Shown piece by piece: positions 2,632 to 57,920 of a DNA stretch of 64,000 nt (position 1 is its first letter; the number at the start of each line of letters is the position of its first letter). The translations under genes were made by a program, and so were the position numbers. The DNA is from Protoeuglena noctilucae (taxonomy: Eukaryota): contig OY253683.1 of NCBI GenBank assembly GCA_958009085.1, positions 558,001-622,000 on the forward strand, in the 5' to 3' direction. The notes under the pieces were generated by a model, which did no database searches, was not told the DNA's origin, and was given only the letters and a program-made list of their open reading frames with translations.

Positions 2632-2779
2632 TCAGCCTCCGCGCGGCGCATGATCTCCAGGCGCTGGGCCGCGCGGCGCGCACGGGGCTCGCCCTTGCGC
2701 CTCGCGACCTGCAGACGTCAGGGACGCAGCACGGGTCAGGCATAGAGAACTCGACAAAAGAACACATTGTCACACCACC

Positions 2780-5700
2780 CCCCGTCGCGCCTCGTATGGG
2801 TCCCCACGTCTCTGTACAGGTCCCCACCTGCAGCTTGGCGCCGCGCCCTGTCATTCGCTTCTGCAGCTCCGTCAGCGCCCCCTCGTAGCCCTTGGTGGAG
2901 ACCAGCTCGTAGCACGACTCGAACTCCACGCGCTCGCGCGGCGCCCTCTGCCGGCGCGCGTCGTCGCTCAGCGCGTCCCGCTCCATAGCATTCGCCTGGG
3001 CCTCCACCGTCCGCCTCAGGTCCAAAGCAGGAACAGGGCCCGGCGCCAGGTAGGGCCTCCCTGGGCCATGGGGGATGCCCGAGGGGGGCGAGGTGGCGCT
3101 GGCCGCGTGATGCGATCGCACGCGGGAGGGGCGGGGAGGCACGCTGTCGACGCGGCTGCGGCGGAGACTCTGCGGGTGCAAGCAGAGGGCTGGGAAGCGT
3201 GACAGTGTTACAACGCAGTGCAGGGAGCCCCGCGAACCATGCGCCGTTCTGCGCTGCACCGCACCTCCAGCCCAGGGAGCGCCAGGCCCATCCCCCGCCC
3301 GGCCTGGGGTGACGGCGGTGGCAGGCCGTCGGAATCGCTGTCAGATGAGCCAGGGCCCGAGTCCAAAGCGCCCCACGGCGCGCCGCCGCTCGTGCTGTGC
3401 CGCCGGGCGCGGCGTGGCGACGCTCCGTCCGGCCCCGGAGTGTCTGGGCCGTCCCACTCCGACCCGCCCCACTCTCCCCGGTCACCCACCACAGCGCTGC
3501 CCCCGCGTCCGCTGCGCCCCGCCCTGTCCCCGTCTCCCTGCCGCGAGAGCACGCTCTTAGGCGAGAAGATGCTCAGGAAGGGGCTCTCCGTCCCCGTCTT
3601 GCGCTTCCTGCTCCGCTCCACCTCCCGCTCGTGACGCTCCAACGCCGTGGCGTCCACCTCAACGTCGCCCGTCAGCTCCGGAGCCCTCGGGGCGGAGAGC
3701 GCGTCCAGGGCCAGCGCCGGGGGCGGCGCGGCCGGCGATGCCTGCGTGAGAAAGCAGGAGGTGGGGGCACCGTGAGCAATTCCTAGCCCACCGGCGAGCG
3801 TTGGGTGAGCGTTGCCCCGGGGCCCCTCGCGACCCCGTTGGGCCCACTCGCCTCAAGCGCCTCCTCCCCGTCGCTCTGCGTCCCGCCCTTGATGACTGCG
3901 ACGGGCAGCTGGAGCTTGGGGAGCCGCGTGCTGCCCTTGCCCGTCTTGACCACCACGGCCCCCGCCAGCTTCCGCGCTCGCTCGCGCTCCCGGGCGGCCG
4001 GCCCGTGTCCCGGCGCGTGCTTTGATAGTAAGAAGCACCCCGCCTGCACCCCCCTCCACAGCTCGACGGCGCGCGACCCGACTGCCGCTGCGTGGTGCAG
4101 CATGTCGTGCTCCAGGGCCACCTCGTGCACCAGCAGGTCCATGACGCGCAGCTGAGTCAGGCGCGCGTGGGCCGCGGGGCTGTCGGACAGCGCCAGCGCC
4201 AGGAGGGCGTCCAGGTGGCCGCGCACGAGCGTCAGAACGCCGCGGTGCGGCGAACGGAGGAAGGCGAAGGGCGGCGTGGGGCCGGGGCCCGAGTGCATGG
4301 GCGCCCTGCAACAAGAGCGGGGGATGCAGGTGGTGTGGGGGCTCAACGGGGGCGCGTGGCACGCCAGCTGAGGCGTGAGCCATGCTGCGACCAAGCGCTG
4401 GGCATCTCACCGCCTCTGGGCGGGCGCGAGGAGAGCCGCCGGGTCGCCGTGGTACAGGCGCACAAAGCTCAGGAAGCTTGCGTGGACGTAGTGGCTGGCC
4501 AGGCCGGGGTCCTGGAGGGCCAGGCAGGGGCGGACGGAGAGGAGCTGCGACAACACGGGGCGGCAAGGGAGGCCATCAGGGTAAAGACACAACAGGCACA
4601 TTTGGCCAAGGTGAGAGATGCGGGCAGCTGCCACACATGCATGACTCCTCGCTCACCTCTCGCAGCACCTCGAGGGCGGCCATGACGACCTCGTCCGGCC
4701 ACACGCCCACGCTCCTACGGTCCTTGTCCCCCACTCCAGACACGGAGCAGCACCAAGGAACGCGGGAGCAGCACAGCGCGGCGAGGCAGCTGCCCTCGAC
4801 GGACAGCAGGAAGCGGAGGCGGGCCAGGCAGGCCGCGACGGGGACGCGAGTGCCGGTCGCAGCCACGCACCGCGCTGCGGCGGTGCTCAGGATGCCAGCC
4901 ACGGCGGCCATGCTCGCTGGGAGCTGGGAGGACGACGCTGGCAGCGCCAGCTCGGTCTCGGGACCCAGGCCCCCCTCGTCACCCGCATCTGTGGCCCCAC
5001 GGAGGAGCGCCGCCACGTCACGCCACAGCCACAGGACCGCGAGCTGCAGGGCGGTGCGGCGGCCGGGGGGCAGCGGCGTGGCAGGGGTGCAGAGGAGGGC
5101 GAAGCGCGTGAAGGCGCGGAGGAGGCCCAGGTGGCGTGGGTCCTGAACCAGCGTGGACAACAGGGCACGGCCCAGGGGCGTGCCGGCCGCGTGGTGAGCC
5201 ATGGATGCGAGGAGGGTGACGAGGGCCTGGAGTGTCTGCGAGAGTTGGGAATGGGGCATGGCAGTGTAACCTGGTCGTCACCGGCGAGGCAGGTTCAGCG
5301 AGAGACGGGCTTCACGACCACGCCCCCGGAGCACTCGATATCAATCTCGGTCACAGAGCAGCCCATCCACTCACGAGCACGTCGTCGAACTGCCAGTCGT
5401 CGAATGCCGCCACGTCGTCCTCCAGCGTCCCGTCTTCGTCGCACGCCGCGCGGTCGCACAGGCGGGACAGGAGGGACAGCAGGGCGGGGCCCACACGGGC
5501 CGCCACAGCCCTGGCCACCCCGACACCCGTGCTGCAGGACACGTGATGCGCGAGGCAGTACAGTTGCACGCTGGCGTCCCGTCTCCTGCACTCAGAACGC
5601 GGGGGCCTGGTCGGCAAGAGCGCTCTTCGCTCTCCACGCCAACGCACGACACCCCACGCCGCCTCACCACCGACTCCAAGCCCCCGCGTCCGCAGAGCCC

Positions 5701-8700
5701 GCCTCCACCAGCACCTCCAGCGCACGCTCCACCAAGGGGTCTGGCCCCTCCCCGTCCCCGCCTCCAGGCCCCCCCTTCGCGTCCCCCCCTGCGGCATTCA
5801 GCGCACGCAGCCCCAGCTCCCGCAGCGACCGGTCGAGCACCGCCTGGCCCATCAGCCACGCGCACTTGCGCGGCCCGCTGCCCTTGGCCCCGGGGACCCC
5901 GCACGCCCCGCCCCAGTCCGCCATCCAGTCCTCCGAAGACACCCCGTCCCACAGCTGCGGGTACACAGACCGCGGTCCCCCCGGCTGCCCCAGCCCCGCC
6001 GCGGCCCCCGCCCTCGCCGCGACCGCCAGCGTCTCCAGCACCGCCCGCCGCGCCAGGTACCCGTCCAGTGCCTCCGCGACCTCCTCCCACTCCCGCGCCC
6101 CCCCCGGCCACAGCACCCGGGCGTACCCGGGAGCAAGCGACATGAGCCCCGCCCGCAGCTGCCGGCGCAGCCCCGACGCGCTCAGCAGCCCCGGGTGCGG
6201 GCGACTAAAGATGGGGCCCGCCAGCTGCGCCGGGGTCACCAGGGGCACGACCTCCCCAGGTTCTGCAGTGGTCCCCCCGGCCCCGCCCTTGTCCCTCTTG
6301 GCCCGGGGCGCCTCGGACCGCGTCTTCATCATCAGCGCCAGGTCGGGAACCAACAAACCCTCCCCAACCGCCCTCGCAAGCGCATGGAGCTCCTCGGCCG
6401 CCTGCAACGGCGCCGCGTGGTCCCGGAAGGCATCTGCAAGGGTGCAGGGGGATGCAGAGAGGAGTTAGATGCGCTGACAACAGCGCTACGGCCAGGCATC
6501 GGGCGAAATCACTCCCCAGTGAACCAATGTAAGGGTGTCGCCTCACCTGGCCCTGCGCTGCCGTCTGCCAGCGCCGCTTCCCTCCGCGCCGCCCGCCCTA
6601 CCACCCGGCCGGGGCCCGCACCCTGCCCCAGGCCCAATGGCATCCCCGCGCTTAAGTCCAGATTGACGCTGATCTCGCGCACGTCCGACCCAGCGGCCGC
6701 GTCGCCCACCCAGGTGTCACGGTAGGGCGCCCGCGGCCCAGGCAGCCCCGCCCCACCCGAGCCGCCCCCGCGATCCGACTCCTCTCCACTCGCGGAGCGC
6801 CCGAGTGCGTACTTCGCAAGCGGTCCCCGATCCCCCTGCGCCCCGCCCTCGCTTGCTCTGGGCTCCGACGCACCCTGGGCGCCATCCGCCCCCGCCGCAC
6901 CCCTGTCCTCCTGGCCCCTCCTGCTGAGCCCGTCCCCAGCGGGAGCGCGCAAGCTGCGGCAGAAGAGGCGGCGCCCGGGACCCGCCCCCTCCTGGGCGGA
7001 AGGGACCCCACCGCGTCGATCGGTGGACAGTCGGTCGTACGCCGCGACGAGGGGACCCTGGAGCGCGGCGAGCGCTGGGCTGGCGGCGACGGGGGCGAGG
7101 GGCACGGCGCTGGCCATGACGATGAGCAGGTCGACGGGGGGAGGGGACGGCCCCCGGGTGAGCTGGTCCACGACAGCCGCGCAAAAGCGCTCGGCAGCGC
7201 ACGTCTCGGGGTCTGCGGGGAGGCTCGATGGAGAGGGTCGGTGTGGGCGTGGTCGGGGACTGCAACAGCGAGACGCCGATGCGCCGATGCTGAGGCACCG
7301 ATGCAGCGTCCTCTGCTGCCTCACCGGACCCGCCCAGCACGATCCGGATGCACTCCGCCACCTCGTCCGCCACCTCATCCGCCCGGCCCTTGGAGCGGCG
7401 CCGCGGGGCTAGCCTTAGCTGCCGCGCCACGTCCACCACGCCCACGAGGGCCTCGGTCACCCCCCGCGACACCCACTCTGACGTCAGGAAGACCCCGCCG
7501 GCCGGCGCGCCTGCCTCGGGCAGCCGGCACGCTGCCAGCAGCGCGCGGTGCACGCGATGCAGGGCCTCCACGCGGTCGGCCGCCCCGGGGGCGCAGAGGT
7601 CGGACACGAGCTCGGCGATGCTACGGTCGTGATGGGAGGGCTTAATGCCTCCCTTGCCCCTGCACGGACAGCGCCGGGAGAGATGAGATGGCTGACACGC
7701 GGTGCCACGTGCGCACGACCCATGCTCCTATGTTCCCATGCGCGGCCACTCACGAGGTCCCTGCTCCCGCCGTGACGCCCGGGACGCGGCCCCCCAGGGC
7801 GCAAGCCAGGGCCTCAGCCAGCGTGGCCACTCGGCCGGGGTGCGCGCCCGGCCGCGGCAGCGCCGCCACCGACTCGGGGATGGGGTGCGAGAGGGTCGAG
7901 TGGTCGTGGGGGAGGGGCGTGCCCATGGCATCTGTGTAGAGCACCTGCGGAGAGAGGGAAGGGGCCAAGACGAGTTGTGGGTCCCTTGCTTCAGGCGCAG
8001 CGTGTGAGGCACGTCGCCCGGCAGGTCACCTCGGCAGGCTCCAGGAGCAGCAGGCGGCTGCCGGCGAGGTCAATGCAGAGGTGCAGGGAGTCGATGCGCC
8101 CGCGCCCGGCGTCCTTGGTGGTGATAAGGAAGCCGCCCTGCGCAAAGGACACGACGCAGTCCCGGGACTCGAGGAGCTGCGGCGCGGCCACGGCCTCAGC
8201 GGGGAAGAAGAGCCCACAGTGCTCTGCGGGGAGAAAGGGGAGGGGAGGGGTGCCCTGGTCCTGGAGGCCGGCGCAACAGCAGCGCGGGCAGCGGCTGCGG
8301 GCTCTCGAGCGAGCGGGCTCACCCATGTCTGCGAGGAGGTACTCGAGTGTGGGGAGCAGGCGGTCGCACGCGCTCCGAAGGCTGTCCCACGCCTTGGCGT
8401 GGAGCGTCAGGCGAGCGGCCACGGGCAGGGTGTCGGGCAGAATCGGCACGGGCGGCGCGCCGGCGGACCCCTCGGAGAGGCGCGGGGACGTGAGGCCGCG
8501 CGGCGAGTGGCCCAGCGGAGTGGCGTAGCCAGAGGACGCCACGGCGGGGTCGTCCTCCGGGGCGTAGCGCGGCGTCGGCGTCTGACTGGACTGCACCTTG
8601 GCCACGCCGAGGGGGAAGGCCATGTGTCGGACGCACCCCGCCACGCTCATGGCCAGGCTGATGGGGGCCTGGCCCGACAGGATGTTCAGGGGGTCCGTCC

Positions 8701-8860
8701 ACACGAGCGTGCGCTCCCCGGCGTTTTGGAGGAGCGTGGCCTCGACAGCATCGCGGGTCGCCACGGCGATGCGCACGCTGTCCTCCGCGGCACACGCCCC
8801 GCGCATGCACGAGAGCCCCGCCCGCGACACCAGCGCACACTCGGCGACGAGCGCCGGCAT
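2780..8860 (-). CDS. Multi-exon helical/low-complexity coding region, probably the N-terminal part of the same kinase gene
   Basis: Chain of minus-strand coding-like segments (VEFESCYELVSTKGYEGAL, HLDALLALA...VHEVALEH, HYVHASFLSFVRLYH, RVEALHRVHRALL) flanked by GT..AG sites with no obvious intergenic gap. Candidate ATG at 8860. Could be more than one gene. Confidence 0.5.
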
Positions 8861-10324
8861 GGTGGGCGAGCGGCCAACGTCGGGATGTTCACCCCAGCCT
8901 GAACCCGCCGCGAGTCCGGCCGCGCGCCCTCGCCGGAGCGAACGAAGGGCCTGGGGAGTGCTCCCAGGGCTGTTCCACGCGGGGTGCGCACGCTGGCCTC
9001 CAGATGCGCGTACGTCCGTCCAGATCAAATCTCACTGCGATCGAAGCAACGGGGTTCGCGCTGTATCCCTCAAATCCTTCGCTGGCCTGCCAAGCGACAG
9101 CAGCCCCGGTGCGCACCGCTCCTGCAGGCCCCCGCGGCCAGGTCGACGCCCGCGCGCGCGCGAGACTGCCCTCACCACGAAGGCAGCTTCATGCGACCCC
9201 CAAACTCAGGCTCAGGTAAACGCGACTGGCATTCTCAACCGTGCCACGCAGAAACATTTCTGCGTGCGAGCGCCATTCATCTGCCGGGTGCGACGCAGGC
9301 AGCGCGCGAGCGTGGCCGCGGGTGTCGCGCGTCCGGTTCTCTGACAGGGGCAAACCAACCACGCCCTTCGCGAAGACGGGGCCCCGTCTTCCGCGGCCGA
9401 GCACTCGCAGCGCCGCGCGCTCCTCCCACGCATCAAAATTCCGTGCGTCGCGGCGCAGGGGGCCACGCGCGTGCGGCATCGTCGAGGTGAGAGAGAACCT
9501 CGCGCGCTCTGGTGTCCTCCGCCTCGGCCCGGGGGACCACATCTTCCCACTGCGTTCGCGCCTCCCGCCGGTCGTCTCGCTGGCCGTCCCCTCCCCGGCC
9601 CACGACTTCACTGACGAGCGCTCATGTCCGGCCCCCGCCCAGCGCGCTGTGCCTCCGCGCCTCCTGCCGGGGCGTGAGGCATTTATTCAAGTCGCTCCGG
9701 CCGTCTCCGTTGGGCGCCCCGGCCGTCCTCCTGGGCTGACGCCGGCGTTGCCCCCCCCGGACCGTTTCCGCGGACGCCCGCGCCTCTCGCCGACCGCCCT
9801 TGCCCAGCGGGCCTCCTTGTGACTATCCGCACGAATGACGCACGGTGACGCCGCGGGCCCGCGCGGGCTCGGCGCGGCGGGAGCCCACTTTTGGGCTGCA
9901 CTTGACGAAGCGCCCGGGCCCCCGCCCTGGCCCCGCTCGCCGGCCGCCTGCACGTCCTTTTTAAAATTTACCGCGTCGGGGCCAGCCGCGCCGCAGGCTG
10001 GTCGGGCTGCGATCCGCGAGGCCCCCCGCGCTTCCCCCGTCCCGCGCGATCCGCCCCCCGGCCCCTCCCCGGGCTCCCCCGCGGCGTTTCGGCTCTCATT
10101 CCCCGCGGGTGCCGCGCGTCGCGCGGGCGTTGGACCCCCCCCGTCGGTCGCAGCTGCATTGGGCGCCCTGGCCTGCGCGCGCGAGGCGCCCCGCCGCGCT
10201 GCGCGGTCGCGCGGGGGGCAGCCGTGCGGCCCTGCCGCGCCGGTGACTCAGCGACCATCGCCCCGCGCGCAGGGGTCGCGAGGAGGGCGGGCGCGTGGTG
10301 CGGCGGAGGGCCTCGGGCCTCACC

Positions 10325-11288
10325 ATGGGCGGCATGGATCTCCGGATCGGGGATAGGATCCAGGTCAAGTACGACCTGGTGGAGGACGACGGGGAGGTGC
10401 GTGCCGTGGGGCGAGGGCCGGCTGCATGTCGGCGCGCTCTGCCGCGGCCGGGCGACGGTCGCCCGTCGACCCCGGCGCGCAGGTCGAGTCGACCGTGTGG
10501 TGGGGAGCTCAGGTCAAGGACATCCAGATGGCTCCGGACGGGCGCCGGATTTACAGGCTCTTGTACGACGCGTACCCAGAGGGGGGTTCGGATGAGGCCG
10601 AGGTGGGATTGGAGGGCGTTGCGGCGAAGCCCGCGCCCGCGGCGCCCCGGCGTCGCCCCGTTGTCGCCTGCGCTCCGTCTCATGCCCCGCCCTCTTCCGT
10701 GCGCAGGAGCGGAGTGTGCAGCTGGGGGATGCGCCGGACCAGATATGGGAGCTGGACGACCACCTGCGGAGGACGGACCAGCAGACATTCCGCATGGAAC
10801 CGCCGGACGAGAAGGGGGTGTGGCCCGCCAACGTGAGTGAACTCTCTCCTGCGATTCGCGCCAAGGGGTCGGGGCTCGCGGGGCTCGCGGGTCTCAGTTC
10901 TGTGCGCGGCAGCGGCCGGGCAGGACCGGGACACATCCTCCACCGCCCGCAGGACGACGACACGGCGGGCTACCAGCAGTCGACGTACGCCACCTACGCT
11001 TCGATGAACCCACAGCTGCAGTGGTACTCGCAGCACGCGTACAACCAGCAGCAACAGATGGGGATGGACGCGCGGCAGCACGCGTCGTCGCAGGCGCACA
11101 ACCCCCACGCCGGCCAGCAGAGCATGCAGCAGGTCCTGCTACAACTCCAGCTGCAGGCACAGAGGCAGCAGCAGGCTGGCCAGGTAGGCGCCGGGGCGCT
11201 GCAGAGGCGCAAGGCAGGCCAGCGGGGCGCGGGCATTCCCCACATGGTCCCCTCCCTGCCCTGCTTTCAGTACCCCTACCAGCAGTGA
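10325..11288 (+). CDS. Hypothetical protein with Tudor/SH3-like N-terminal segment and Gln-rich tail
   Basis: Spliced exons MGGMDLRIGDRIQVKYDLVEDDGE|VESTVWWGAQVKDIQ...RRIYRLLYDAYPEGG..., then a Q-rich C-terminus ending at TGA 11288. Confidence 0.55.
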
Positions 11289-11970
11289 CGGCCGCGGCGT
11301 GGCCGGTGCCACGCGCTTGCGCTGGGAGTTGTGTGCTCGGGCGCCAGCTTCCTCCGCATCTTCTCAAGGCTCTCGGTCGGTCGGCGCATGCCCGTGTCGG
11401 GAGCACGGGCAGCCCGCCCCGCCGTCTGTCACTGTGTGCTGCGACTCCGCGCGACGGCTCGAGACGGGTGCACATCGGGGCTGATACTGCGCATGACATG
11501 AAGTTTGTGTGGCGAACGCCGCCCTGGCGTGAGGGCTAGGTTCCCCATGCAGCCCCGCACCCCATGCAGAGCTCTACGGAGGCGTGCGCGCATGGAGCCT
11601 TGCACGCCCCTTGAAGGCCCTCGATAGGCAGATCTCTGGGAGGTGTCGCTGGCACCCGCGGCAGAGAGGTTCCCCGGCGACATCGCCCTGCGCGATGTCA
11701 TCCACTTGCACAGATCCGATACCTCGTCGTCCAAGATGGCTCTTTGCGCCTCGATCGCCGCTGCGTTGAGGCCCCTTCCGGGCCCCTGCCGTGCCCCGTC
11801 GTCGCTGTGCAGGGCCAGGTGCGTGCAGCGACGCATTTCGTCTCATTCGCTCCACGGAGCGTCGGAGGGCCCGCACGCCTCCTTGGATCTCGCGGCCCAC
11901 GGCAGGCCGCGTCGCCCGTTAGAGCTGTCGCGTGCCCCCCCCGCGCGTGGCGCTAGAAATATGGCTGCCG

Positions 11971-13421
11971 ATGACGATTTCGATTGCCTGGGTCGTGCCC
12001 CGGCCGCGCGTTCGTCCTGGAACCGGGCGTTGACCCCAGGGGACGTGGCAAGGGACGACCCTGCGGGTCCACGCCCTGCCCGGGCCCTCGTGCGATGCCG
12101 CTTGCCTAGTGCCCGCCGGGGACGCCCTGCCCGCTCCCCAGGACCGCGAATGCGTTCGCAAGTGCGTCCCCGCGTGCGAGGGCAGGGTTCGATGGTGTTT
12201 CCGCGTCTCGCGCGCCCAGGTCGGCCGCGTTCGCACCGTCGCTGGCGCGGGGGGACTTGACGGTGCGGGCAAGAGCTACGGCCGAGGCGGGGAACAAGGG
12301 GGGCGCTGTGCAAGGCCACGACAGCTCGGCAGCGAGCAAGCCCGTCATTCGTATCGACAACAAGGTACGCGGGCTCCCGCCCCTGCTTTCGCGCTGGCGG
12401 CTCGCATCTGGCCCGCCGCGGGGAGGGGCTGCCACGGCCCTCCTCTGAGCGTGTTCTGCTGAGGCGCTTCGCCCGCCGCAAGCATTCACCTAGGTGCAGC
12501 TCGATGCTCACCTCGCCGGGCTCTGACGGCTGCGGACTGACGAGTTCTCATCTGTTGTTTGTATCCACAGAGCGATGAGTTCGCAACTGTCATAAATATC
12601 GAATTTGAGGAGGACCTGGGGGACCTGGTGGACCTGGTTCAGGCCATTCGCAACCTGGGGCTTAACGTCGTCCGCGCCTCGGTCGACTCGACTCCTGGGG
12701 ACGACCGCGCGGTGTACCAGTTCTTTGTGACGGGTGCGTGGTGCCGTTTGCCTCACATGCTTCGTGCCGGGGTGCCGAGGGTGAAAGCGGCCGTTCGATG
12801 CCTCACCGCAGACAAGTACACGAGCGACAAGGTGCTCAAGTCGGAGATGCTGGAGGAGATCCGCGTCGCCATCGCCTACTCCTTGCTTCAGAGCGTGGAC
12901 GACCTGGAGGGCAAGATCATGGCGGCCGCGCGGCCCGCCCCGGCCGAGGAGGGCAAGCCCGTGGCGCGCAACAAGGACGGCATCGCCACCAAGGTCTGGA
13001 TCTACCGGCATGTCACCGGCTCCCGCTCCATCCTCCGCGTGCGAACTTGGGTGAGGCGAACGAGAGCATTGCTGCAAATGAGCGCGGATGGGCAGGGCCA
13101 TCTGAGACTAAGGAGCTCGGCCTGGCGGCGGTGGCACGAGCAACGCAGCCTGCGCGTACCCGGCCCCATCCCTTGCATGCCTGGCGCGGTTGCCCGTTGC
13201 AGGACCGCCCCGGCGTCCTGGTGGAGATTGTGCGGACGCTCAAGGACATGAGCGTGAACGTCATCAGTGCCGAGATCGACACCATCGGCAACGAGGTGGA
13301 CGACACCTTCTTCGTCACGTACCAGGGCGAGGCTCTGCCGCCCAACATGGAGATTCTGGCCACCAACGCCCTGCAGTACCACCTCGGCCTGTTCGACGTC
13401 GAGCGGGACCACTCCTACTGA
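11971..13421 (+). CDS. ACT-domain repeat protein, ACR11/ACR12-like, probably plastid-targeted
   Basis: KPVIRIDNK|SDEFATVINIEF...LGLNVVRASV...FFVT|DKYTSDKV...EEIRVAI, and a second ACT repeat DRPGVLVEIVRTLKDMSVNVISAEIDTIG...FFVTYQGEAL. Start approximate. Confidence 0.88.
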
Positions 13422-26771: not shown

Positions 26772-29700
26772 TAGGCGTGCAGTGCCTTATACTTAGAGGG
26801 TAAGACGCCCATCACTGTCTTAATTGCAAGAAAACAGCCAGTACCCTACCGAGAGTACGTTCTCAATTCAGATCATCAGACAGTCTCGCATCGTGTCATC
26901 AAAGTGGAACTCGCGGGATACACCGAGGCCCAGCAAATAGCGCGCCTTGGTTTCTGAATGAGGCCGGCATTGTGACGGCGCGTGTGATTTAAGCTGTCGC
27001 CGCCTGGCGGTCTCTCTACAGCCCCCTGTCTACTACTGGCAGTAATATCTCCATATCCTTGCCGCCGGCACCGGGGACACGGCGGGCAGAGATGGCGCAC
27101 CGGCAGGTCCTCGCTCCCCTGGCCTTCTTCATCCAGGAGGGGATGCCGCGGCACATCACCGTCGCGTGCACGGAGGCAAGTTCATGATGGCGCTATCGGA
27201 GCGTCGCACGTGGCCCGGGAGCTGCGATGCGCCCCTGATGCGCGCTTTAGAGCTGTTCCCATGGCTGCGTGTGGGGGCGTCCCCTGCGCAGTGCGGGGGA
27301 TGAGCGAACCGACTGACCGTCATTCATCGGTTCGCAGGTGCTGAAGCAGCTCCGGAACGACCCGACAATGCGCCTGTGGCAGACGGTGGCCAAAGGGTGC
27401 GTGACGAGACACTCTGCGGCCTTTTTCGCGAATCCCCGATCGCTAGCGACCGCGCCGTTGCATACCGCGTTTACTGCGTGTCTTGACCGCAGAGTGGAGG
27501 GCCGCGGGGACGAGGCGCTGCGCGACCTGCGCCTGCTGGAGCAGGACAGTCTCGTTGGGCCTGCAGCCATGGCCGCGTCCCTCTACATCCACCAGCAGTC
27601 GCTCATGGTGGACAGTGAGGCCATCGCGCGGCTACAGGTGGGCAGCGCGAGGATGGTCGCTTGCGCTCGTATCTGTGCCCCCCCTGCGAGTGTACAGCAT
27701 GTGGATGCTTCGCCAACATGCGATGTGCAGGGTGACCTCGAGATGTTGGAGAGCTCGGCGTCGGACGAGTCGCGAGTGGAGCTGGCACGCGTTCACTGGT
27801 GCTACGGCCAGCGGGAGCGCGCCCGGGGTCTCCTGGAGGACGTCACGCTCCTCACCTCGAAAAACGTGCCGGCCCAGTCCCTGCTCGGCTGGGTCATCCT
27901 GTCCCAGGTGCTGCGTGGAGAAGCCTGCCGTCGCTCGCAGCAGCGTCTTTCCTGTCCCTGCTGGGTGTGACAGGGGCCCACTTGCTGTGATGTTGTGATG
28001 TAGACCTTGCGTACTGTCCCAGCTCAGCGACGCCACACGTGTGTATGTCGCAGGTGGAGTCTGGCGCAGAGGAGCACGTGGAGGGAGAAGACCCTATGGA
28101 GGACGCGGCGAAAGCCCTGGACAGCGCGCTGGCCGCGTCGGACCTGGACGCAGAGGCAGCCCTGGGGCGCGTGCGCCTGTACCGCCTGCAGGGTCTCGCG
28201 GCGGAGGCCCTGTCGCTGCTCGCGCAAGTCATCGCTCGCTACTCGTGGCTCGTGCCCGCGGAGGTGGGCGTGCATGCTTCCAGGCCCCATGCCTGCCCAG
28301 CTGCGGTGCAGAGCAACGACTGGGCCGGTGCAGATTCAGACTGTGCACATCTGCAACATTCCCTTCGCAGGTGGAGCGCATGCGCGTGTTCCTGGGCGAG
28401 GTGCGCTGGGAGGAGGCCCTGGAGTCAGCGCAGAGGGCGCTGCAGGCGGACGACACCAACGCAGACGCCCTGGCCATGCTCGCCCTGTCGTCCGCAGCCA
28501 AGGACGGGCGCCTCCACGTCGCAGCTCGGTACCTCGGTGAGAGTTCGAACTGCGCTGACTCGTCAGCCTGGCTATGCATTGGCCACCGCCCTGTGCCTGG
28601 CTCACGCAGCAACATCCCACTCCCCTTCTGCAGGCGACTTGCTCGCGGCGTTGCAGACAGCTGAGCCCCGGCAATGGCGTCTGCTGTCCGCGGCTGGCGC
28701 GGCCTTCGCGAAGATGGCCACGCACGACGAGGACCTGGCCGCGGCGGCGCGGCAGCTGGCGGAGGCGGGCGTGCGTGCCGCCCCGCAGGAGGCCAAGGCT
28801 CAGTCGGCGATGGCCGCGTGCCTGCTCGCGCTGGGCGACCACGAGCGGGCGCTTGCGCTGTACAACCGCGCCGCGGAAGCGGACGTGGCGGATGTGGGCG
28901 CCATGACGGGGGGGGCGCGGTGCTTGGTGCTGCTGGGCCGCACGGAGGAGGCGCGCATCAAGGTGGACGGCCTCATCGAGGGTTTCCGCTCATTCCAGGC
29001 GACCGACGCAGAGATCATGGCCGTGGCGGGCGGCGGGCAGGGCCCCGAGGTACCCAAGCTGGAGGGCATGGGACTCGCGGAGCAGGCCACCCTGTACTAC
29101 CTCCGCGCCGCGCTGTCGTGGCTGGCCGTGCAGGAGGGCGCCGGAGAATCAGCCGAGTCGGAGGTGAGGAGCGGTGATCTCACTTCTTCTGGGACCTCGG
29201 CCATGTGGTCCCTGCTAGCACCGAGGGGTGCCTTACCGTTACGTGGGCGAAGGGCAGCGGCCATGGTGAACAGCTCTTCCCCTTCCTCGCGCAGCTTCGC
29301 GTGGCTTACCTGGAGCAGGCCATGGTGTGCTTAGGGAACCTGCTGAAGACGCACCCGGTCTCGCTCCAGGCAGCGGCCGCGGTGGACACCTCTCTGTGCC
29401 TGGACCTGGCGCTGCTGATGCTGCAGCACGTGGCGGGGGAGCCACTGGGGCAGGGGGAGGCGGCGCTCCGAGAGGTCGACCTGACGACGAAGGTGGCTGG
29501 GGGTTGAGAGCGTTCACTGCATATGGCGTTATGAGCAACGAGCTGCCAGAGGCTGGTATGCAACTTGTGCCCCTGTGATCGTCGCCCTGGCTTCCTCCCA
29601 CTCCCACGCAGCACTTGCAACGACTGTCGAAGGTCTTCCCCGGCCACCCCGGGATCCAGTGCTTGTTGGCCACGTGCTTGCTGATGTCTGGGTCCACCGA

Positions 29701-30815
29701 CGCAGCCATGAAGAAGGCAGGGGTGGTGCTGCTGAACTCACCGGAGGTCGCTGACGCGCACCTGATCGTCATCCGTGCTCACCTACAGGACAAGGTGTGC
29801 GCTGTGCTCAGGAAGGCAGCAGTGGGAGTTGCTGGGCTCGGGACGGGGCAGAGTGTTTTAATATCAGATGCATCCTGCTTCTGCTGTTCAGAACACGGCT
29901 TTGGCGAGGAAGGCGCTCGACGTGGCCGTGGCACAGAGCTACAAGATTCGTCTGACGCCCCAATACCACATGTCCATGGCGCGCTTGCTGCTGAGGGAGC
30001 GAGACGCCGCCCAGGCACTCAAGTTCCTGCAGCAGGCCGAGGTGAGACGAGGCAGACCCACGCCCGTGTATCTCTGCTGCGCCGGTCCCGCTGCGATGCC
30101 TGAACCAGCTTCCGGCCCATGCCTTTGCAGAAGATGCCGGGGATGCGTGGCCGGACCCTCCCGCGCGTTCCCGGCAGCAAGCACGGGGCACCGCTGACGC
30201 TCCACGACAAGACTACGGTGCTTCTGCTCCAGGCGGATGCCTTGAATATCCTGGGGAAAAAACCTGAGGCGCAGAAGATCCTCGCCAAGGCTGCGAAGGT
30301 GGGCAGTGCTGTGGTCTTTGGAAGTGCTGCCTTCCTGGGAGCGTCATGTCTCACTTGGCATGCTTGCATCTGTGGCGCAGGAGGCCGCAGGCACGCCGGA
30401 GGAAGTCATCGTGGCGCTCGCGAGCACAGACATGAAGATCGCCAATGGGGACGTCTCCGGTGCTATGCGGTGACCAGCGCAACAGACCTTAGAACTGCCT
30501 TTGGTGCCGCCGTGAGCATGATACGCGGTGTGACACATGCGCGTGCACCCTCACTATTACTCTGCTCTCTCCTCCCAGGGACATGGAGGCTGTGCCCCCG
30601 ACGTCGCCGCTCTTCATCCAGGCCCGCACTGCCCTGGCGCGCATCTACCTCGACAAGCGGCGCGACCGGGCGGCTTACACGAAGTGCTACCAGGACATCA
30701 TCGACCGGTTCCGGGACAAGCGCTCCTACATGCTGTTCGGCGAGGCCATGGTGCACATCCAAGAGCCCCTCAAGGCCGTCGAGGCGCTGAAGGAGGCCCT
30801 CAGGCGAGTGCGGGC

Positions 30816-30906
30816 TGCGATGAGATATGGTGGCAGATGGACCCAGATTGTGAAGCCGCACTGTGATGAGGTGTTATGACAGATGGACCCCGATTGTGAA
30901 GCCGCC
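30816..30906. repeat. Imperfect tandem duplication of about 45 bp inside an IFT139 intron
   Basis: Two copies sharing CAGATGGACCC(A/C)GATTGTGAAGCCGC within intron 30804-30929. Confidence 0.75.
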
Positions 30907-31185
30907 ATCAATGCGTCTCTCGCCTGCAGGCGCGATCCCCGCGACGCCTCGCTGGCCCTTCGCATCGGGGCGGCCCTGGTCGCGACACACGACTTCGAGG
31001 GCGCGGTGTCGTACTACGAGAAGGCAGTGAATGCGAACCGGGGGAACGTGGAGCTGCAGCTGGAGCTGGCTGGCCTCCTGGCACGGGTGGGGAGGGGGCG
31101 GGCGGCGCAGCAGATGCTGCAGCCTTTCAGGTGTGATGAAGTGACGCAATGCATGGCGATGAATCTGCTGGCGAATTCCACCTCT

Positions 31186-31226
31186 CCACACCTGTTTCAC
31201 CCACACCTGTCTCACCCACACCTGTC
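31186..31226. repeat. 15-bp minisatellite, about 2.7 copies, intronic
   Basis: CCACACCTGTTTCAC CCACACCTGTCTCAC CCACACCTGTC. Confidence 0.8.
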
Positions 31227-33075
31227 CGTTGCCCGTTCTCTGCAGGGACGCCCAGGGCTCCGTGGAGGCCATGCAGGCACGGGTCAAGGCGCTGTGTATT
31301 CTGTCTGACCTGGAGCGGCGGCAGGGGAACGCGGTTGCGCAGATCGAGCTGCTCGGGGAGGCGCTGCGGGGGCAGGAGGCGGTGGTGGAGGCCGTGAGGG
31401 GGGAGCCGGCGGAGGTGGTGGCAGCGGAGAGGCGGGTGGCGGCAGACCTCGCCTTCCGCATCTTCAGGGAGAGGGCGGACCTCGGCGTGGCTCAGGACGG
31501 GATGGTCGCGCTGCGAGAGGTGCTGCAGCGCAACCCAGCACACCACCAGGCGGGCCTCGCCATCGCGCGCATGCACCTCGCTGCCGGGGACGTCAACGCG
31601 TGCATGACGCAGTGCGAGCACCTGCTCACGGACGGTGAGATCTCTTGCAAAGGGTGCTAGATACAACTGCGTTGTGCGGCCCACCCAAGCAACTTTGGCT
31701 GGGTCATCTCCCGATGCAGATGACGGGGATGAGGAGGCGTCGATGCTGCTGGCCGAGGTGGCCGCGATGCAGGGAGACGTGGAGCCGGCGCTGGGGCGCT
31801 TCCAGGTCATCCTGGCCCGCAAGCCGGACCACTTCCGCGCTCTCTTCCGCCTTCTGGACGTGCTCAAGCGCACGGGCAACCTGGCGAGCGCCAGCGACTA
31901 CCTCGAAGCAGCGCGGCACGCCTCGCCCCGCACCGCCACCTCGGCTGGATACCAGACCTGCGAGGGGGCCCTACACCGCAGCTGCAACCGCCCGCAGGCG
32001 AGGTGCTGCGCGTGTGCGTGGGTTGGCATCACACAGCCCGCTGTGGGCTGTGCGACTCATTTGCAACCATTGTCTGGCTGCAGGAGGCCCTCCGCTGCCT
32101 GAACCGCGCCCGTGGCGACCCCGAGTGGGGCCGCGACGCCACGTACATGATGGCGGACATCTACCTCGATCCCAACAGCGAGCGCCTGTGGGCTGCTGCC
32201 GGTGATGACGAGGACAGCATCCCCGACAACTTCCAGGCCGCTGCCTCTGGGGAGAACCTGAAGGCGGTCGCCGAGCTGCTGGCCACGGTCCGCCCAGTGG
32301 CCTCGCGGGCCACGGTCCGGCACAAGGTGCTGGAGGCATACACACATATGGCTTCCGGGGAGAAGGCGGATGCTGAACAGGCACTCAGCGCGCTCCTCGA
32401 CCTCGCGAACAAGGCGAGGGCCTGCTGGCTGCCCTGGGCCCCAGTCATACTTCCCCCCGTCATGCCTCTGCTGGAGATCTGTGCTTTAGCACTCAACTGC
32501 TGGCCCTGTCTGCAGGACCGGGACCACGTGCCGACGCTGCTGGCCATGGCCACGGCGTTCATGCTCCTCCGCCAGAAACCCAAGGCGCGCAACCAGCTCA
32601 AGCGTATCGCCAAGATGCCGTACACTCCCGAATACGGCGAAGACTTCGAGGCGAGCTGGCCTGGCGTTGCCGCAAAGCCGTGTCGACGTCGGGATGCTTG
32701 GACGCAAAACTCCCACAGCTTCCGCCCGCCCTCGCAGAAGGCGTGGCTGTCGCTGGCGTCCATGCATCTGAAGGGCGGCAAGTTCGACCTGGCCCAGGAG
32801 CTGTGCCAGAAGTGCCTCAAGTACAACCGCTCGTGCGCCCAGGCGTGGGAGCTGATGGGGCAGATGCTCGAGAAGGAGGGGGCGTACAAGGTGTGTGTGC
32901 TTCCGAGTCAATAACAGCTGCTGCGGATGCCGGCCACGACAGCACCCAAGAACTCTCAGCCTCTCAGCTGTCTCTCTCGACTTCGCCAACCGCAGGATGC
33001 GGCTGAGCACTACCACCACGCGTGGGACCTGGTGCAGGGCGCAAGCGCACAGAGCGGCTACCGGCTCGCGTTCAA

Positions 33076-49143: not shown

Positions 49144-53078
<3,935 letters not shown>

Positions 53079-53658
53079 GCCTGCGCAATACCTTCACACG
53101 ACCATGCAAACAAAGATGTGCCTTGTTCAGGCAGTGGCAGGGCACCAGAGACACCGGCGGGCGCCAGGGCACGCTTCCCGCCGTGGATGTTCAAGCTAGG
53201 GTCCGTCGTCGGGGCGCAAGTAGCGACGAGTCTGGCTATCGCACAGGATTGCAGCACTATTGCTACGTCATCGGCCAATGCCGCGCATAAACGGCGTGCA
53301 CGGACGGATGTGCACTGCACGGACCGCCAGTGCGCAAGTCCACTGGCGCTGCCCTACAACGTTTCAGCCACGAGCCCCTGACATGCATCGTGCACGTACT
53401 GCGTCTGTGTTCACGAGGCTCTGCCTGCCCCTGCCGAGGGGTGGCAGTCTGCAAGAACAGAGGAGTGGAGTGCTTCTACCCCGCCCCGTCCCCCGATTGA
53501 GCCCGAAGATGGAGGCGGACGACACTGCAGGTGACATGCGTGAATGATGAGCGTGATGAGCTCGTGGAACCAGCGCGTCAAGGGCTGAGAGGCCCACCAG
53601 GTGCCCGTGCATCTCCTCAGGCCCACGAGGGAGCGACCGGGCGCAGTCACAAGGCCCG

Positions 53659-54260
53659 ATGGGCACCGACGTCGATCCAATGAACGCGGGAAAGGACGAA
53701 TTCTTTGGCGATGAGCTGGGAGAGGCTGGTGAGGAGGCATGCGTCGCCCCCGGGCGGTCCGCCATGCTGTGAGGATGTTTGATGCATGCTTCACGGTCTC
53801 TGCCGCCGGTGTGGCTCCAGGAGTCCACGCGGACGGGGTGAATCTGTACGACGACCTCTACGCCGGCGAGGAGGGCGCCGCGGTCCTGCAGGAGCGCGTC
53901 GACGGGCTGGAGCGGACATGCGCGAAGCAGCGGAAGGAGCTGGGCGATGCGCGGGCCGAGTTGACGCGAATCCAAGCCGAGAATGAGGCGCTGCGGAAGG
54001 ACAGGGAGACGCTGCTGAAGAACATCTCCTCCGTGTATCTCACGGGTGAGATTGGCCATTGCACAGTCATCCCAGACCCACTGTCCCCACGTCTGGGCTC
54101 CAGCGGCAATGGATGAGTTCCACATCACAGCTGCTGAGCCATGTTCCACTATCTAACCCCTTCCCCCCCCCTGAACGCAGCAAAGGGCGAGATTGAGCGC
54201 CTCCGTGGCCAGGTTCAACGGCTGAGCACCGAGCTCGCGGTCAACCGTGCGAAGAGGTGA
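53659..54260 (+). CDS. Small coiled-coil protein resembling the FLASH/CASP8AP2 N-terminal domain
   Basis: Exons 53659-53728, 53821-54045 and 54181-54260: ...VNLYDDLYAGEEG...ENEALRKDRETLLKNISSVYLT|AKGEIERLRGQVQRL. AG|GTGAGT at the end may add a short fourth exon ending near 54403. Confidence 0.65.
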
Positions 54261-54572
54261 GTCCATGGCGCGGCAGGGATGAGCCTGGCTTCGTGTCCAT
54301 GGGCTTACTTCGCTGTTGGCAGCCCTCCCCGCTTGCGCTTTGCCAGGCAAGGCTTCTTTTCGCTATTCATTGCAGTCACGGTGGTCAGGGCCCGCACTCG
54401 TGAGTCGTGCCGCCAGGGGAGGCGGACCGTCGCCACCCGAGACTGGCAGCTGTGGACGCGTCATCCGGCGGGGTCTCTCCGCGAAGGATGGCAGTTTTCG
54501 GGTTGTTTGCGTGTGTGATACGCACATCGCGAGCGCTGGAGCACCCGGACTCCTCGACCAGCAAGAGCCCGC

Positions 54573-57171
54573 CATGTCCGTCGAGCCCGAGCTTTCCCAC
54601 GGCGTCGCCGGCTGCGATCCCGTGGACGCAGCCGTTCCGCTTTCGTCAGGCTCCCCTGCGTCCGTCGTGGAGGTCGCCGCTGCGGCCCAGCCGGCCTGCA
54701 CGCCCCAGGACCTCGCCGACGCCGCGTCCCCGAGGTCCGAGGGCCAGCCAGCGTCGGGAGACGTCGTTTGCACGCCAACGAAGAAGCGCGTCGCCATCAA
54801 GTGAGCCTCCGGGCTCTGCGGGCGCCGTGACCTTTCGAGCTGGGGACCGTCACCGGCCCGGTGCATCGGCATCTCATGCTCCTTGACCCTGGCTGCTGTC
54901 TGCTTTCGCTCTGCAGTGAGGGAGACGCAGGGAAGGACGAGCCAACGTCTCCGGGGCTGGCCAAGGGCAAAGTGGGCCGCTCCTTCGCCCGACACGTTGC
55001 GGCCCAGAGCGAGAGGTACGGGCGCTGGGCGCGCGTCCCTCTCCTGCAGTTGCGCGTATGTCAGTAACGCCCACCGCAGCGTACGCGTGCGTCGCTGAGC
55101 GCGTGCTCGTGCTCGCGCGCAGGGGTGTGCTGCACGTCCTGCTCGACCAGCTGGTCAAGTTCGGCATCATCATGCTTGCTTGCTCTCCTTTCATCGGCGG
55201 CATTGCTTGGGCTGTGCCCAACGCCCTGTGCAAGGTTCCTATGGAGCAGTCCATGGCAAACGGCGGCGGCGGCAGCGGCGGCTTCTTCGACTGCCTGTAC
55301 ATGAAGCACATGGACTGGAAGGGGGCACCGACCCTGACAACGCTGGTAAGTGCATGGGTCACAGTCCGGGGATCGACAAGATGCCGTGACTGACCGTGGG
55401 CGGGTGCGTCGTGGGGGTCATGCTGCTGTATGGGTGCGTTGCCCCTCCCCGCAGCTGATGCTCTTCTGGGCCATCACTTACACGTATTCCGCCATGGCTC
55501 CCACTGTCGCCCTCATCGCCATCTTCGGCATCCGCAAGTTTACGCGCCGGGAGATTGTCAGCCAGAGCGTCATGGCTGTCCTCATGTGCGCCATCACGGT
55601 CGGCTGCATCCTGTCAGGCGAGTGACATTCCGCCGCTCGGATGTCTCGTGAAGGCCGCCTCGTGTTGGGCTCCTTCTCACGGACCCCCGCCACCCGGCAT
55701 CGGCGTCATGCAGGCATCGACGCGGACACGCAGGGCCCCCTCGGGAGGTTCCGGGGCGGGTACGTGGTGCTGCAGTACGCGCTTTCGGGCGCGATGGTGA
55801 CGCGCATGACCGGCGAGGGGAAGCTCTTGGGCATCCAGGTGCGTGGCTGTGCGGCAGGGTCTGCGCGGGCCCCTATGCCGGCCGTGGCTGTGGCGGACGG
55901 CATCTCACGCAGTCGACAACCCACGCTCGCAGTACTTCCTTTGCTGGATCGCCCTCGCCGGCATCACCTTCATGTACTCCATGATTCTCCCGACGATCAT
56001 CACCGCCCGGGCCACCGTGCCCCAGCTGGGGATCTTCGCGTTTGTCGTGCACCCCGCTATGTTTGGCGCTCTGACGTTCATGTTCCGCTTCCTCGTCCAA
56101 AAAGTGAAGATCAGGGAGCTGCGGTCTGTCAACCTCATCACAGGTGCGCTGGTGCCCCTGCACGACTGAGATGAGCGAGCACGGGGTGACCCGCAGTGCT
56201 CTCAACATGCCGCCCCTCCCTCGCAGTGCCGCTGTACCTGTCGACGCTGTACGCGCAGTTCCTCCTCCTCCAGCTCAACAACGCGGGGTCCACCTTCGTC
56301 ATCAGGGCCATCATTCTCATGGGATCCCTGGCCATGAAGTGAGGGCAGGCGCCTTGCCCCACAACTAGCGGGCGAGCTCTGCCCGCACGTCCCACACAGC
56401 CCGTGCCCCTGCTGCCCGCAGGTTGCTCATTCGCTCCAACGGCGCGCAGCAGCTGATCACCACGGAGGGCAAGCGCGTGGCTGAGGTCATGCAGGCCACG
56501 CGTGAGGACCTGGAGGACACGCTGGCCGAGGACTTCTCCTTCCACGTGGCTGACATGCTGTCCGTGGTGGCCAACACCCTCTTCTACTGCCTCGGGAACG
56601 TGGCGTCCGCGCCCGGGCAGCTCTCGTCCGCTTGGTCCAACGTCAACCAGGCGCTGGTGCAGGTGCGAGGGTCAGCGGCCTGCGAGGCGGCCACCGACCA
56701 CCGCCTCGGCGTCATGCCTGCCGCCCCCGCCCCGCCCCCAGCTCCTCGTCATCGCGCTCCAGATCGTCCTCGGCCTCCTCATCGACCGCTACGTCCACCA
56801 GGTCCCCGTGGCGGAGCTGTGGTCCCAGATGAAGCCCCGCACCATCGCCTTCTTCACCGCCGCTCTGTGCCTGGGCCTCGTCGGCGAGGTCCCCAAGCTC
56901 TTCCTCCTCTTCTGCCCCAAGTACTACCCCGAGGTGAACGGCGAGCCCGGCATGCTGGCCCCTCGCCCTCGGCCGTCACACACAGGCATGACCGCAGCGA
57001 TGGGCGCGCCCGCCCCCGCAGACGGGCGTCATTCTCGAGTACTGCAACAAGCCTTCCCTCGCCCAGTTCCCCATCCTCCTCAACCAGCGGATCAACGACT
57101 CCTCCCCAGGCCTCATCCAGACCAAGTCCCTGATCGACGGCACCCTGCTCTACTCGTCGCTGAAGCTCTGA
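54573..57171 (+). CDS. Multi-pass membrane protein of unknown function
   Basis: About 9 exons with many hydrophobic helices (FGIIMLACSPFIGGIAW, LMLFWAITYTY, YFLCWIALAGITFMY, LLVIALQIVLGLLI); TGA at 57169-57171. Confidence 0.7.
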
Positions 57172-57248: not shown

Positions 57249-57920
57249 CTAGATCTTGCCCAGCTTGCGCAGCAGGAAGCGCTGCTGCTTGCGGCGCTTC
57301 TCCCGCCGGTGCTTGCTCATCTTCTTGTACCGCTTCCGTTTGGTCGAGTCGAAGGCGACCTCTCGCACCGGCGCACCCGGGGCCCGCACCGGCGCAGGGC
57401 CACTCCCCAAGGGCACCCGGGCTGGGGGCTGGCCTGGGGAGAGAGGTCTCCCTGCCGGGCAGCCCAGTCCCGACGGGACCCATGTTCCCCCAACACCCCG
57501 ATCAGCTTCCCACACTCGCCTCAGACCCGGAGTAGTGACCTGCGGCAGGCAGGCGTGCAGCTACATTCATTAACGGCGGCCTGGGGCGAGCCTGGGGGTC
57601 CACTGTGACAAGTGAGCAAAGGCCGGCTGTCACCTGCCTCGATAGCCAAGGCTGTAAGGGTGAATTTGCAAAGCACGTGTTGACATGGCGCTCGGTTGCG
57701 GCGCTCACTGTGCGGGAAAGCCACCCTGCAGCGGCGGGGAGGAGAGGGGGCGAGTTTGTGAGGCACACGGCATGGCATGGCATGGATTGGCGTGTGCTGC
57801 AATAGCTCCATGTTGTTCCTCACCAGGCGATGCGAAAGAGGCCCCGGCGCTCGAGCCGCCTACGTTTCCACACTCAGCCCCCGCCATCGCAAGCCAGCGC
57901 AAGCGGAGCGCCAACCGCAT
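57249..57920 (-). CDS. Mitochondrial ribosomal protein mS38 / COX24-like (DUF1713)
   Basis: Basic C-terminus FDSTKRKRYKKMSKHRREKRRKQQRFLLRKLGKI. 5' exons and start are approximate. Confidence 0.75.

Follow-up and report, generated by a model that had tools for sequence, protein, structure and literature searches.

The closest described counterpart of the protein reported here is the N-terminal domain of human FLASH, a protein of 1982 residues. SLBP and histone stem-loops are known in algae, although to our knowledge the formation of non-polyadenylated histone stem-loop ends outside animals has not been worked out, and we know of no characterization of the algal machinery that cuts histone mRNA.

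Beyond its N-terminal domain, human FLASH has a central region that binds Ars2, and its contact with NPAT is made by a SANT/Myb-like domain at the C terminus (PMC5636114). The N-terminal domain (residues 51 to 137; PDB entries 6ANO, 6AOZ, and 6AP0) consists of a flexible helix at residues 53 to 70, followed by a long helix at residues 71 to 137 (PMC5636114). Its LDLY motif (residues 55 to 58) is required for binding of the histone cleavage complex, Tyr80, Met87, Phe94, Asn101, and Asn108 are dimer-interface residues, and mutation of Leu118/Ile119 abolishes Lsm11 binding (Aik et al., PMC5636114). According to the available portion of PMC7026596, human FLASH fragments comprising residues 1 to 139 or 52 to 139 recruit symplekin, CPSF100, CPSF73, and CstF64 to the core U7 snRNP and support cleavage in vitro. 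A 200-residue FLASH fragment has been used in reconstitutions (PMC10730174).

The available text of a preprint of October 2026 (bioRxiv 10.64898/2026.10.14.759114), the one work on nonanimal FLASH that full-text searches brought up, reports widespread detection of FLASH, LSM10, and LSM11 beyond the metazoans, with green algae among the groups that have LSM10 and LSM11. It also reports that canonical histone stem-loops accompanied by purine-rich downstream elements are retained in green algae and that histone genes of Chlamydomonas and Volvox have both of these features. An initial annotation of the locus described below, made from the DNA sequence, had regarded U7-dependent processing as characterized mainly in animals and an algal U7-like system as undescribed, and the notion that such factors lack a description outside animals has been partly overtaken by the preprint's account of FLASH, LSM10, and LSM11. 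The same text names no algal FLASH and no form that consists of the N-terminal domain only, while Figure 2 and the supplements of the preprint may list such proteins. The general idea is thus already in print, as far as the text goes, and what appears to be new here is the stand-alone N-terminal domain architecture with spliced-RNA support. The initial annotation had also set the locus against the histone mRNAs of volvocine algae; this framing is not established, and the window is represented in marine metatranscriptomes.

A spliced and expressed five-exon gene

The locus lies on the plus strand of the 64-kb stretch of DNA that was analyzed (the window), which is nuclear eukaryotic DNA with a GC content of 0.64 to 0.74 and short GT..AG introns. 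RNA contigs from four runs (X1 to X4), all from one marine metatranscriptome study, were aligned to positions 52800 to 56300 of the window; regions without RNA cover in X2 to X4 are not evidence of absence. The main support is a 2452-nt contig from X1 that begins at approximately position 53457. Exon 1 (53457 to 53530, the 5′ limit being the end of the contig and not a mapped transcription start) contains the 5′ untranslated region and the first 22 coding bases from an ATG at 53509, whose context is gAAGATGG. Intron 1 (53531 to 53620; GT..AG, 90 nt) is removed in this contig, which brings ATG 53509 into frame and gives a protein of 152 aa encoded by five exons. In X3, on the other hand, a contig that runs without a break from 53523 to 53692 retains intron 1 and may represent an isoform, pre-mRNA, or library DNA. 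With the intron retained, a 12-codon upstream ORF ends at 53547, and the start would instead be ATG 53659, from which an ORF of 132 aa in four exons extends to a TGA at 54401 to 54403. The FLASH-like region is wholly encoded whichever of the two starts is used.

Exon 2 (53621 to 53728) contains ATG 53659 and encodes a first acidic/aromatic stretch, DEFFGDEL. It is followed by intron 2 (53729 to 53820; GT..AG, 92 nt), which is spliced out in both X1 and X4 contigs. Exon 3 (53821 to 54045) encodes an LDLY-type motif, NLYDDLY (53841 to 53861), a linker, and most of a long helix up to LLKNISSVYLT (54012 to 54044), as assigned by translation, PDB and profile searches, and AlphaFold2. The next motif, AKGEIER (54045 plus 54181 to 54200), is divided by intron 3 (54046 to 54180; GT..AG, 135 nt, phase 1), which is removed in the X1 contig. 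Exon 4 (54181 to 54256) encodes AKGEIERLRGQVQRLSTELAVNRAK, which, judged by translation and by alignment with a relative, P0005, completes the counterpart of the human Lsm11-binding region. After intron 4 (54257 to 54375; GT..AG, 119 nt), also removed in X1, the coding part of exon 5 (54376 to 54403) supplies SHGGQGPHS and the TGA. The calculated pI of the product is 4.9, i.e., it is acidic.

We conclude that the locus is a real, spliced, and expressed five-exon gene. Translation of the window finds the motifs where the initial annotation had read them (53841 to 54200), and the three coding introns that it had proposed (introns 2 to 4) are all spliced out in the X1 contig, each with GT..AG boundaries. 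Its estimate of about 125 aa was too short, the actual length being 132 aa (from ATG 53659) or 152 aa (from ATG 53509). Its description of the protein as stand-alone and limited to the domain agrees with the spliced RNA, in which the stop codon falls 27 residues past the EIER motif that ends the domain.

Two relatives among representative proteins

An exhaustive HMMER search of 1,835,955,588 representative proteins gave three proteins with an E value of ≤0.001. One of these (P0003) is the window's own ORF, and the other two, P0004 and P0005, are the only relatives found. Both are 43 to 45% identical to the exon 3 product and keep both motifs. P0004 is 82 aa long and ends in YLTGES, which is the end expected of an ORF call that reads into a splice donor at the place and in the codon phase of intron 3. 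P0005 is 138 aa long, continues uninterrupted through RNISVLYKTAVEEIGRLR, and ends at a similar distance past the domain. All three proteins share an LY/IY-acidic motif (NLYGDIF and GIYDEF in the relatives), an invariant R.C..Q, and N..L...R.TL.(K/R)NIS..Y.T, and the further TA..EI.RLR is common to P0005 and the window protein. Because the collections consist mostly of prokaryote-style ORF calls, two relatives say little about the true range of the family.

When the window ORF was used as the query of a word-indexed protein search, the 13 candidates included no match other than that ORF. The same kind of search with the family alignment returned the three family members and three rows with E values of 0.9 to 9.2 among 1886 candidates, and none of 7999 scored candidates in the range of 243 to 2000 aa reached an E value of ≤10. 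A single metagenome locus (L001) was confirmed out of 585 pattern matches and was rejected, being a generic coiled coil beside a thioredoxin-reductase-like ORF on a bacterial contig. In a scan of viral contigs, none of 180 pattern matches was confirmed.

Similarity to the FLASH N-terminal domain

Sequence searches were made against 177,635 distinct PDB sequences. With the exon 3 peptide as the query, the N-terminal domain from human FLASH (6aoz_B) ranks first of 14 rows with an E value of 0.1, and query positions 5 to 72 align colinearly with chain positions 5 to 70 of 96. With P0005, the two best of 10 rows are both FLASH (E values of 0.09 and 0.18), and the alignment covers ...NIS.L.KTA..EI.R. 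P0004 finds FLASH second (E value of 0.2), with the CEP85 centrosomal coiled coil first at equal bits. The pairwise similarity to FLASH is low (~16 bits), and each of these single-sequence matches is nonsignificant when taken alone (E values of ~0.1 to 0.2). A wider alignment, with the exon 4 peptide as a separate row, was set aside because MAFFT misplaced that row. A profile built from the three sequences finds two FLASH entries with E values of 3.5e-4 and 1.3e-3, and the next match is a designed/synthetic zipper at 0.032. The similarity to the solved human FLASH domain is thus of moderate significance and comes from a profile of three sequences only.

In a comparison by ESM Atlas features, the cluster nearest to P0005 is a chordate "C8AP2 protein (Fragment)," with a score of 0.95 and 174 of 256 features. 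The second and third clusters consist of short proteins without a name, one from oomycetes (100 aa, 91 members) and one from arthropods (133 aa), which suggests that short proteins resembling the FLASH N-terminal domain may be more widespread. With the truncated exon 3 peptide of the window, the Atlas gave only generic matches (0.91) with low recognition. Pfam searches gave 11 generic coiled-coil families, all under their curated cutoffs, for the exon 3 peptide and no family for the exon 4 peptide. The 25-aa exon 4 peptide is too short for a PDB search of its own, which gave one unrelated match and did not find FLASH. A Foldseek search of the PDB with the P0005 model gave a best E value of 4.8 and was uninformative, as expected for a single helix.

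The correspondence between the two proteins can be followed residue by residue. (Human numbering is anchored by C54S, which is at chain position 5 in 6AOZ, and by PMC5636114.) In the exon 3 alignment, NLYDDLYAGEEGAA of the window protein aligns with LDLYEEILTEEGTA of FLASH; the L-Y-acidic-acidic-aliphatic pattern and EEG.A are kept, and the first Leu-Asp of the human protein is Val-Asn. At the level of sequence, there is thus an LDLY-type motif N-terminal to the coiled coil, but it reads NLY and not LDLY. In the numbering of the 152-aa protein, NLY is at residues 51 to 53 and the Asn of KNIS is residue 111, so that L52 and N111 are 59 residues apart, compared with 57 residues between human L57 and N114. 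The alignment has two one-residue gaps in the linker and is then gapless over human residues 73 to 119.

Over the long helix, the heptad a positions C77, L84, L91, N98, R105, I112, and A119 correspond to human residues 80, 87, 94, 101, 108, 115, and 122, a series that takes in the five dimer-interface residues listed above, and the d positions I94, L101, L108, and V115 correspond to human I97, L104, L111, and L118. Of the 24 a and d positions, 13 are hydrophobic, and the Asn at an a position matches human Asn101. Human Leu118/Ile119 corresponds to V115/Y116 in the window protein and to Leu/Tyr in the relatives. The profile alignment pairs the invariant Cys of the family with human Cys83; we do not adopt this pairing, because the gap of three residues that it requires interrupts the heptad register found in the ungapped exon 3 alignment. 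A counterpart of the segment that binds Lsm11 in the human protein (residues 100 to 139) can be recognized from the sequence, with KNISSVYLTAKGEIER facing KNISALIKTARVEINR, and exon 4, which was part of neither the exon 3 query nor the profile query, extends the match in register, with TAKGEIER facing human TARVEINR.

For the window peptide, AlphaFold2 predicts a short helix of low confidence at positions 8 to 14, over LYDDLYA, and a helix at positions 16 to 73 with pLDDT above 90. For P0005, it predicts a low-confidence helix at positions 26 to 44 and a long helix at positions 48 to 131 with pLDDT above 90. This two-part architecture agrees with that of the human domain. The likeness to human FLASH residues 51 to 137 (6ANO, 6AOZ, 6AP0; PMC5636114) comprises an LY-acidic motif on a short helix, a long helix, the heptad register, a buried Asn, and the series NIS..TA..EI.R. 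Based on the top-ranking profile match in the PDB (E value of 3.5e-4), the C8AP2 cluster in the Atlas, the colinear motifs, and the matching heptad register, the homology to FLASH/CASP8AP2 that the initial annotation had proposed holds at moderate strength, and we consider it very probable that the window protein is a true homologue of the FLASH N-terminal domain.

The protein is limited to the domain

The window protein differs from human FLASH in having NLY instead of LDLY, in its low identity, and in lacking everything beyond the N-terminal domain. Neither the central region nor the C-terminal SANT/Myb-like domain of animal FLASH is present, so that the window protein does not qualify as a full-length orthologue of FLASH. 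One model used for recognizing FLASH, cd12202, presumably describes the C-terminal SANT-like domain. In the available text of the preprint, FLASH was called with PANTHER PTHR15489 at an E value of <1e-5 and with CDD cd12202 (bioRxiv 10.64898/2026.10.14.759114), so that a protein of 132 to 152 aa with only the N-terminal domain may be missed by that approach.

In extent, the window protein equals the 139N and delta-51 fragments of human FLASH as these are described in the available portion of PMC7026596. Those fragments were made in the laboratory by truncating an animal protein, whereas the window protein is a natural gene product, known from its sequence. Since the human N-terminal fragments are sufficient in vitro, as reported in that portion of the paper, the missing FLASH regions matter less for mechanism than one might suppose.

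Neighboring genes: MCM6 and a downstream ORF

The gene is arranged head to head with an MCM6 gene (50057 to 53157, minus strand), which was identified by its Pfam MCM_N, OB, P-loop, and lid domains and by its best PDB match, MCM6, which scores ~10 orders of magnitude better than other MCM proteins. The first intron of MCM6 that is seen in RNA (52952 to 53051) reads CT..GC on the plus strand and is therefore a GC..AG intron. The 5′ end of the MCM6 RNA contig is at 53157, so that the 5′ ends of the two RNA contigs delimit a divergent promoter region of ~300 bp (53158 to 53456). Sharing a promoter region with a replication gene fits a role in S phase, but this is circumstantial. A single E2F-like core, TCCCGCC, is present at 53176 and is too weak to use. 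The scan, which covered E2F and MSA-type promoter motifs, also gave a perfect GCGGGAAA, but this lies inside coding exon 2 and was likewise set aside as too weak.

Downstream of the stop codon, a transcribed spacer of 170 nt (54404 to 54573, plus strand) separates the gene from the ATG of the next ORF at 54574. The X1 contig is unbroken from 54374 to 54800 and continues via six more introns into this ORF, covering 53457 to 56300 on the plus strand in total, and X2 contigs also cover the spacer. The downstream ORF encodes at least 374 aa and is hydrophobic, its fragments have no Pfam match, and it looks like a multi-pass membrane protein. The arrangement may reflect a bicistronic mRNA like those described from green algae or, equally, two overlapping transcripts merged by assembly. 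Upstream ORFs of green-algal bicistronic mRNAs have median lengths of 444 to 600 nt (PMC7896298), and the FLASH-like upstream ORF has 459 nt. Eight ATGs, including that of the upstream ORF itself, precede the start of the downstream ORF in the spliced RNA, which speaks against simple leaky scanning. Cover in X2 sets in within intron 4 and is lacking from the upstream exons, which hints at a separate transcript start, although the depth is only ~3. The poly(A) signal TGTAA occurs seven times per strand in the 64 kb, which by our estimate is no more than chance. No copy lies between the two ORFs and one lies at 57653, so that the signal cannot tell a single transcript from two.

Two smaller observations concern the downstream gene. 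Its intron at 55618 to 55713 (plus strand), which is spliced out in the RNA contig, has a GC..AG boundary (CAG/GCGAGT). At 54604/54682, within the first exon of this gene, opposite strands are joined in a small X2 contig, which is probably an artifact of assembly or library preparation.

A possible role in histone mRNA processing

By analogy with the FLASH N-terminal domain, we infer that the long helix would form a parallel coiled-coil dimer and that its C-terminal half, from KNISSVYLTAKGEIER onwards, would bind an Lsm11-like subunit of a U7-type Sm ring at that subunit's N-terminal region. Together with this Lsm11-like partner, the flexible helix that carries NLYDDLY at the N terminus would dock the cleavage module (CPSF73, CPSF100, symplekin, and CstF64), and histone pre-mRNAs would then be cut 3′ of their stem-loop. 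The gene may also be coregulated in S phase with the divergent MCM6. We put the probability that the protein works in the formation of histone mRNA 3′ ends in this manner at about one half, and the locus suggests that this organism may process histone mRNA in the animal style.

The same evidence of homology would equally fit a true homologue of the FLASH N-terminal domain that has taken on another job, as a dimeric adaptor that brings CPSF73/symplekin or some other partner to a different class of RNA, or that serves an S-phase process without a U7-type snRNP. We regard this as the strongest competing explanation, albeit an unlikely one. It is in keeping with the absence of the C-terminal FLASH region, which targets histone locus bodies, and with the content of the window, where no Rfam family reaches its gathering score in the 64 kb and a six-frame scan with short motifs finds no core-histone motif. 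We know of no other function of the FLASH N-terminal domain, which counts against this explanation. The best-conserved segment, moreover, is the one that corresponds to the Lsm11-binding residues 100 to 139 of the human protein (PMC5636114), and LSM10 and LSM11 have been reported from green algae in the available text of bioRxiv 10.64898/2026.10.14.759114.

It is improbable, in our judgment, that this is an unrelated small coiled-coil protein whose likeness to FLASH comes from chance and coiled-coil composition. The pairwise E values of 0.09 to 0.2, the generic coiled coils that follow closely in the single-sequence searches, the generic Pfam and Atlas matches of the window peptide, and the empty structure search are what such a protein would give. 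In contrast, the profile finds FLASH with an E value ~100-fold better than that of the best generic coiled coil, and FLASH tops the list with two of the three family sequences and ranks second with the remaining one. Similarity is also found outside the coiled coil (LY[DE][DE][IL]..EEG.A) and at nonheptad positions (NIS, TA, and EI.R), the match extends into exon 4, which was not used in the search, and the top Atlas cluster of P0005 is C8AP2.

It is very improbable that read-through, a frameshift, or alternative splicing joins the FLASH-like ORF to the downstream membrane-protein ORF in one longer product, even though both ORFs are on one RNA contig 170 nt apart, since TGA 54401 to 54403 is present in the spliced contig, the second ORF is in frame 2 relative to the first with stops in the spacer, P0005 (138 aa) also ends soon after the domain, and, as weak evidence, none of the 7999 longer proteins matched.

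Returning to the reading in which the protein serves histone mRNA 3′-end formation, we tentatively suggest, as an idea that is possible but for which the odds are below even, that this is a natural mini-FLASH. A stand-alone module of ~90 residues in a marine unicellular eukaryote would be the ancestral and sufficient adaptor between a U7-type Sm ring (Lsm10/11) and the CPSF73 module, induced with DNA replication via the promoter shared with MCM6, and animal FLASH would consist of this module plus later histone-locus-body and apoptosis additions. If this is true, it would argue that the U7-type machine has a core older than animals and that animal FLASH acquired its remaining parts later. A natural protein that has only the FLASH module and bridges Lsm11 and the CPSF73 complex would, if confirmed, also be a small and tractable handle that makes histone mRNA processing outside animals directly testable. 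The value of the finding is tempered by the preprint, in whose available text FLASH, LSM10, and LSM11 are already claimed to occur beyond animals (bioRxiv 10.64898/2026.10.14.759114), and by the fact that the proposed function is drawn from homology.

Other features of the window

Positions 1 to 12000 are the most GC-rich part of the window (0.72 to 0.74), and several reading frames there contain very long ORFs. Of those with ≥220 aa that were scanned in this part, the sole Pfam match is a protein kinase domain (217 to 2631, minus strand). A TTC21/IFT139 gene, of the intraflagellar transport type, is present at 27991 to 32911 on the plus strand, and since a protein of this type is encoded, the organism is probably flagellate.
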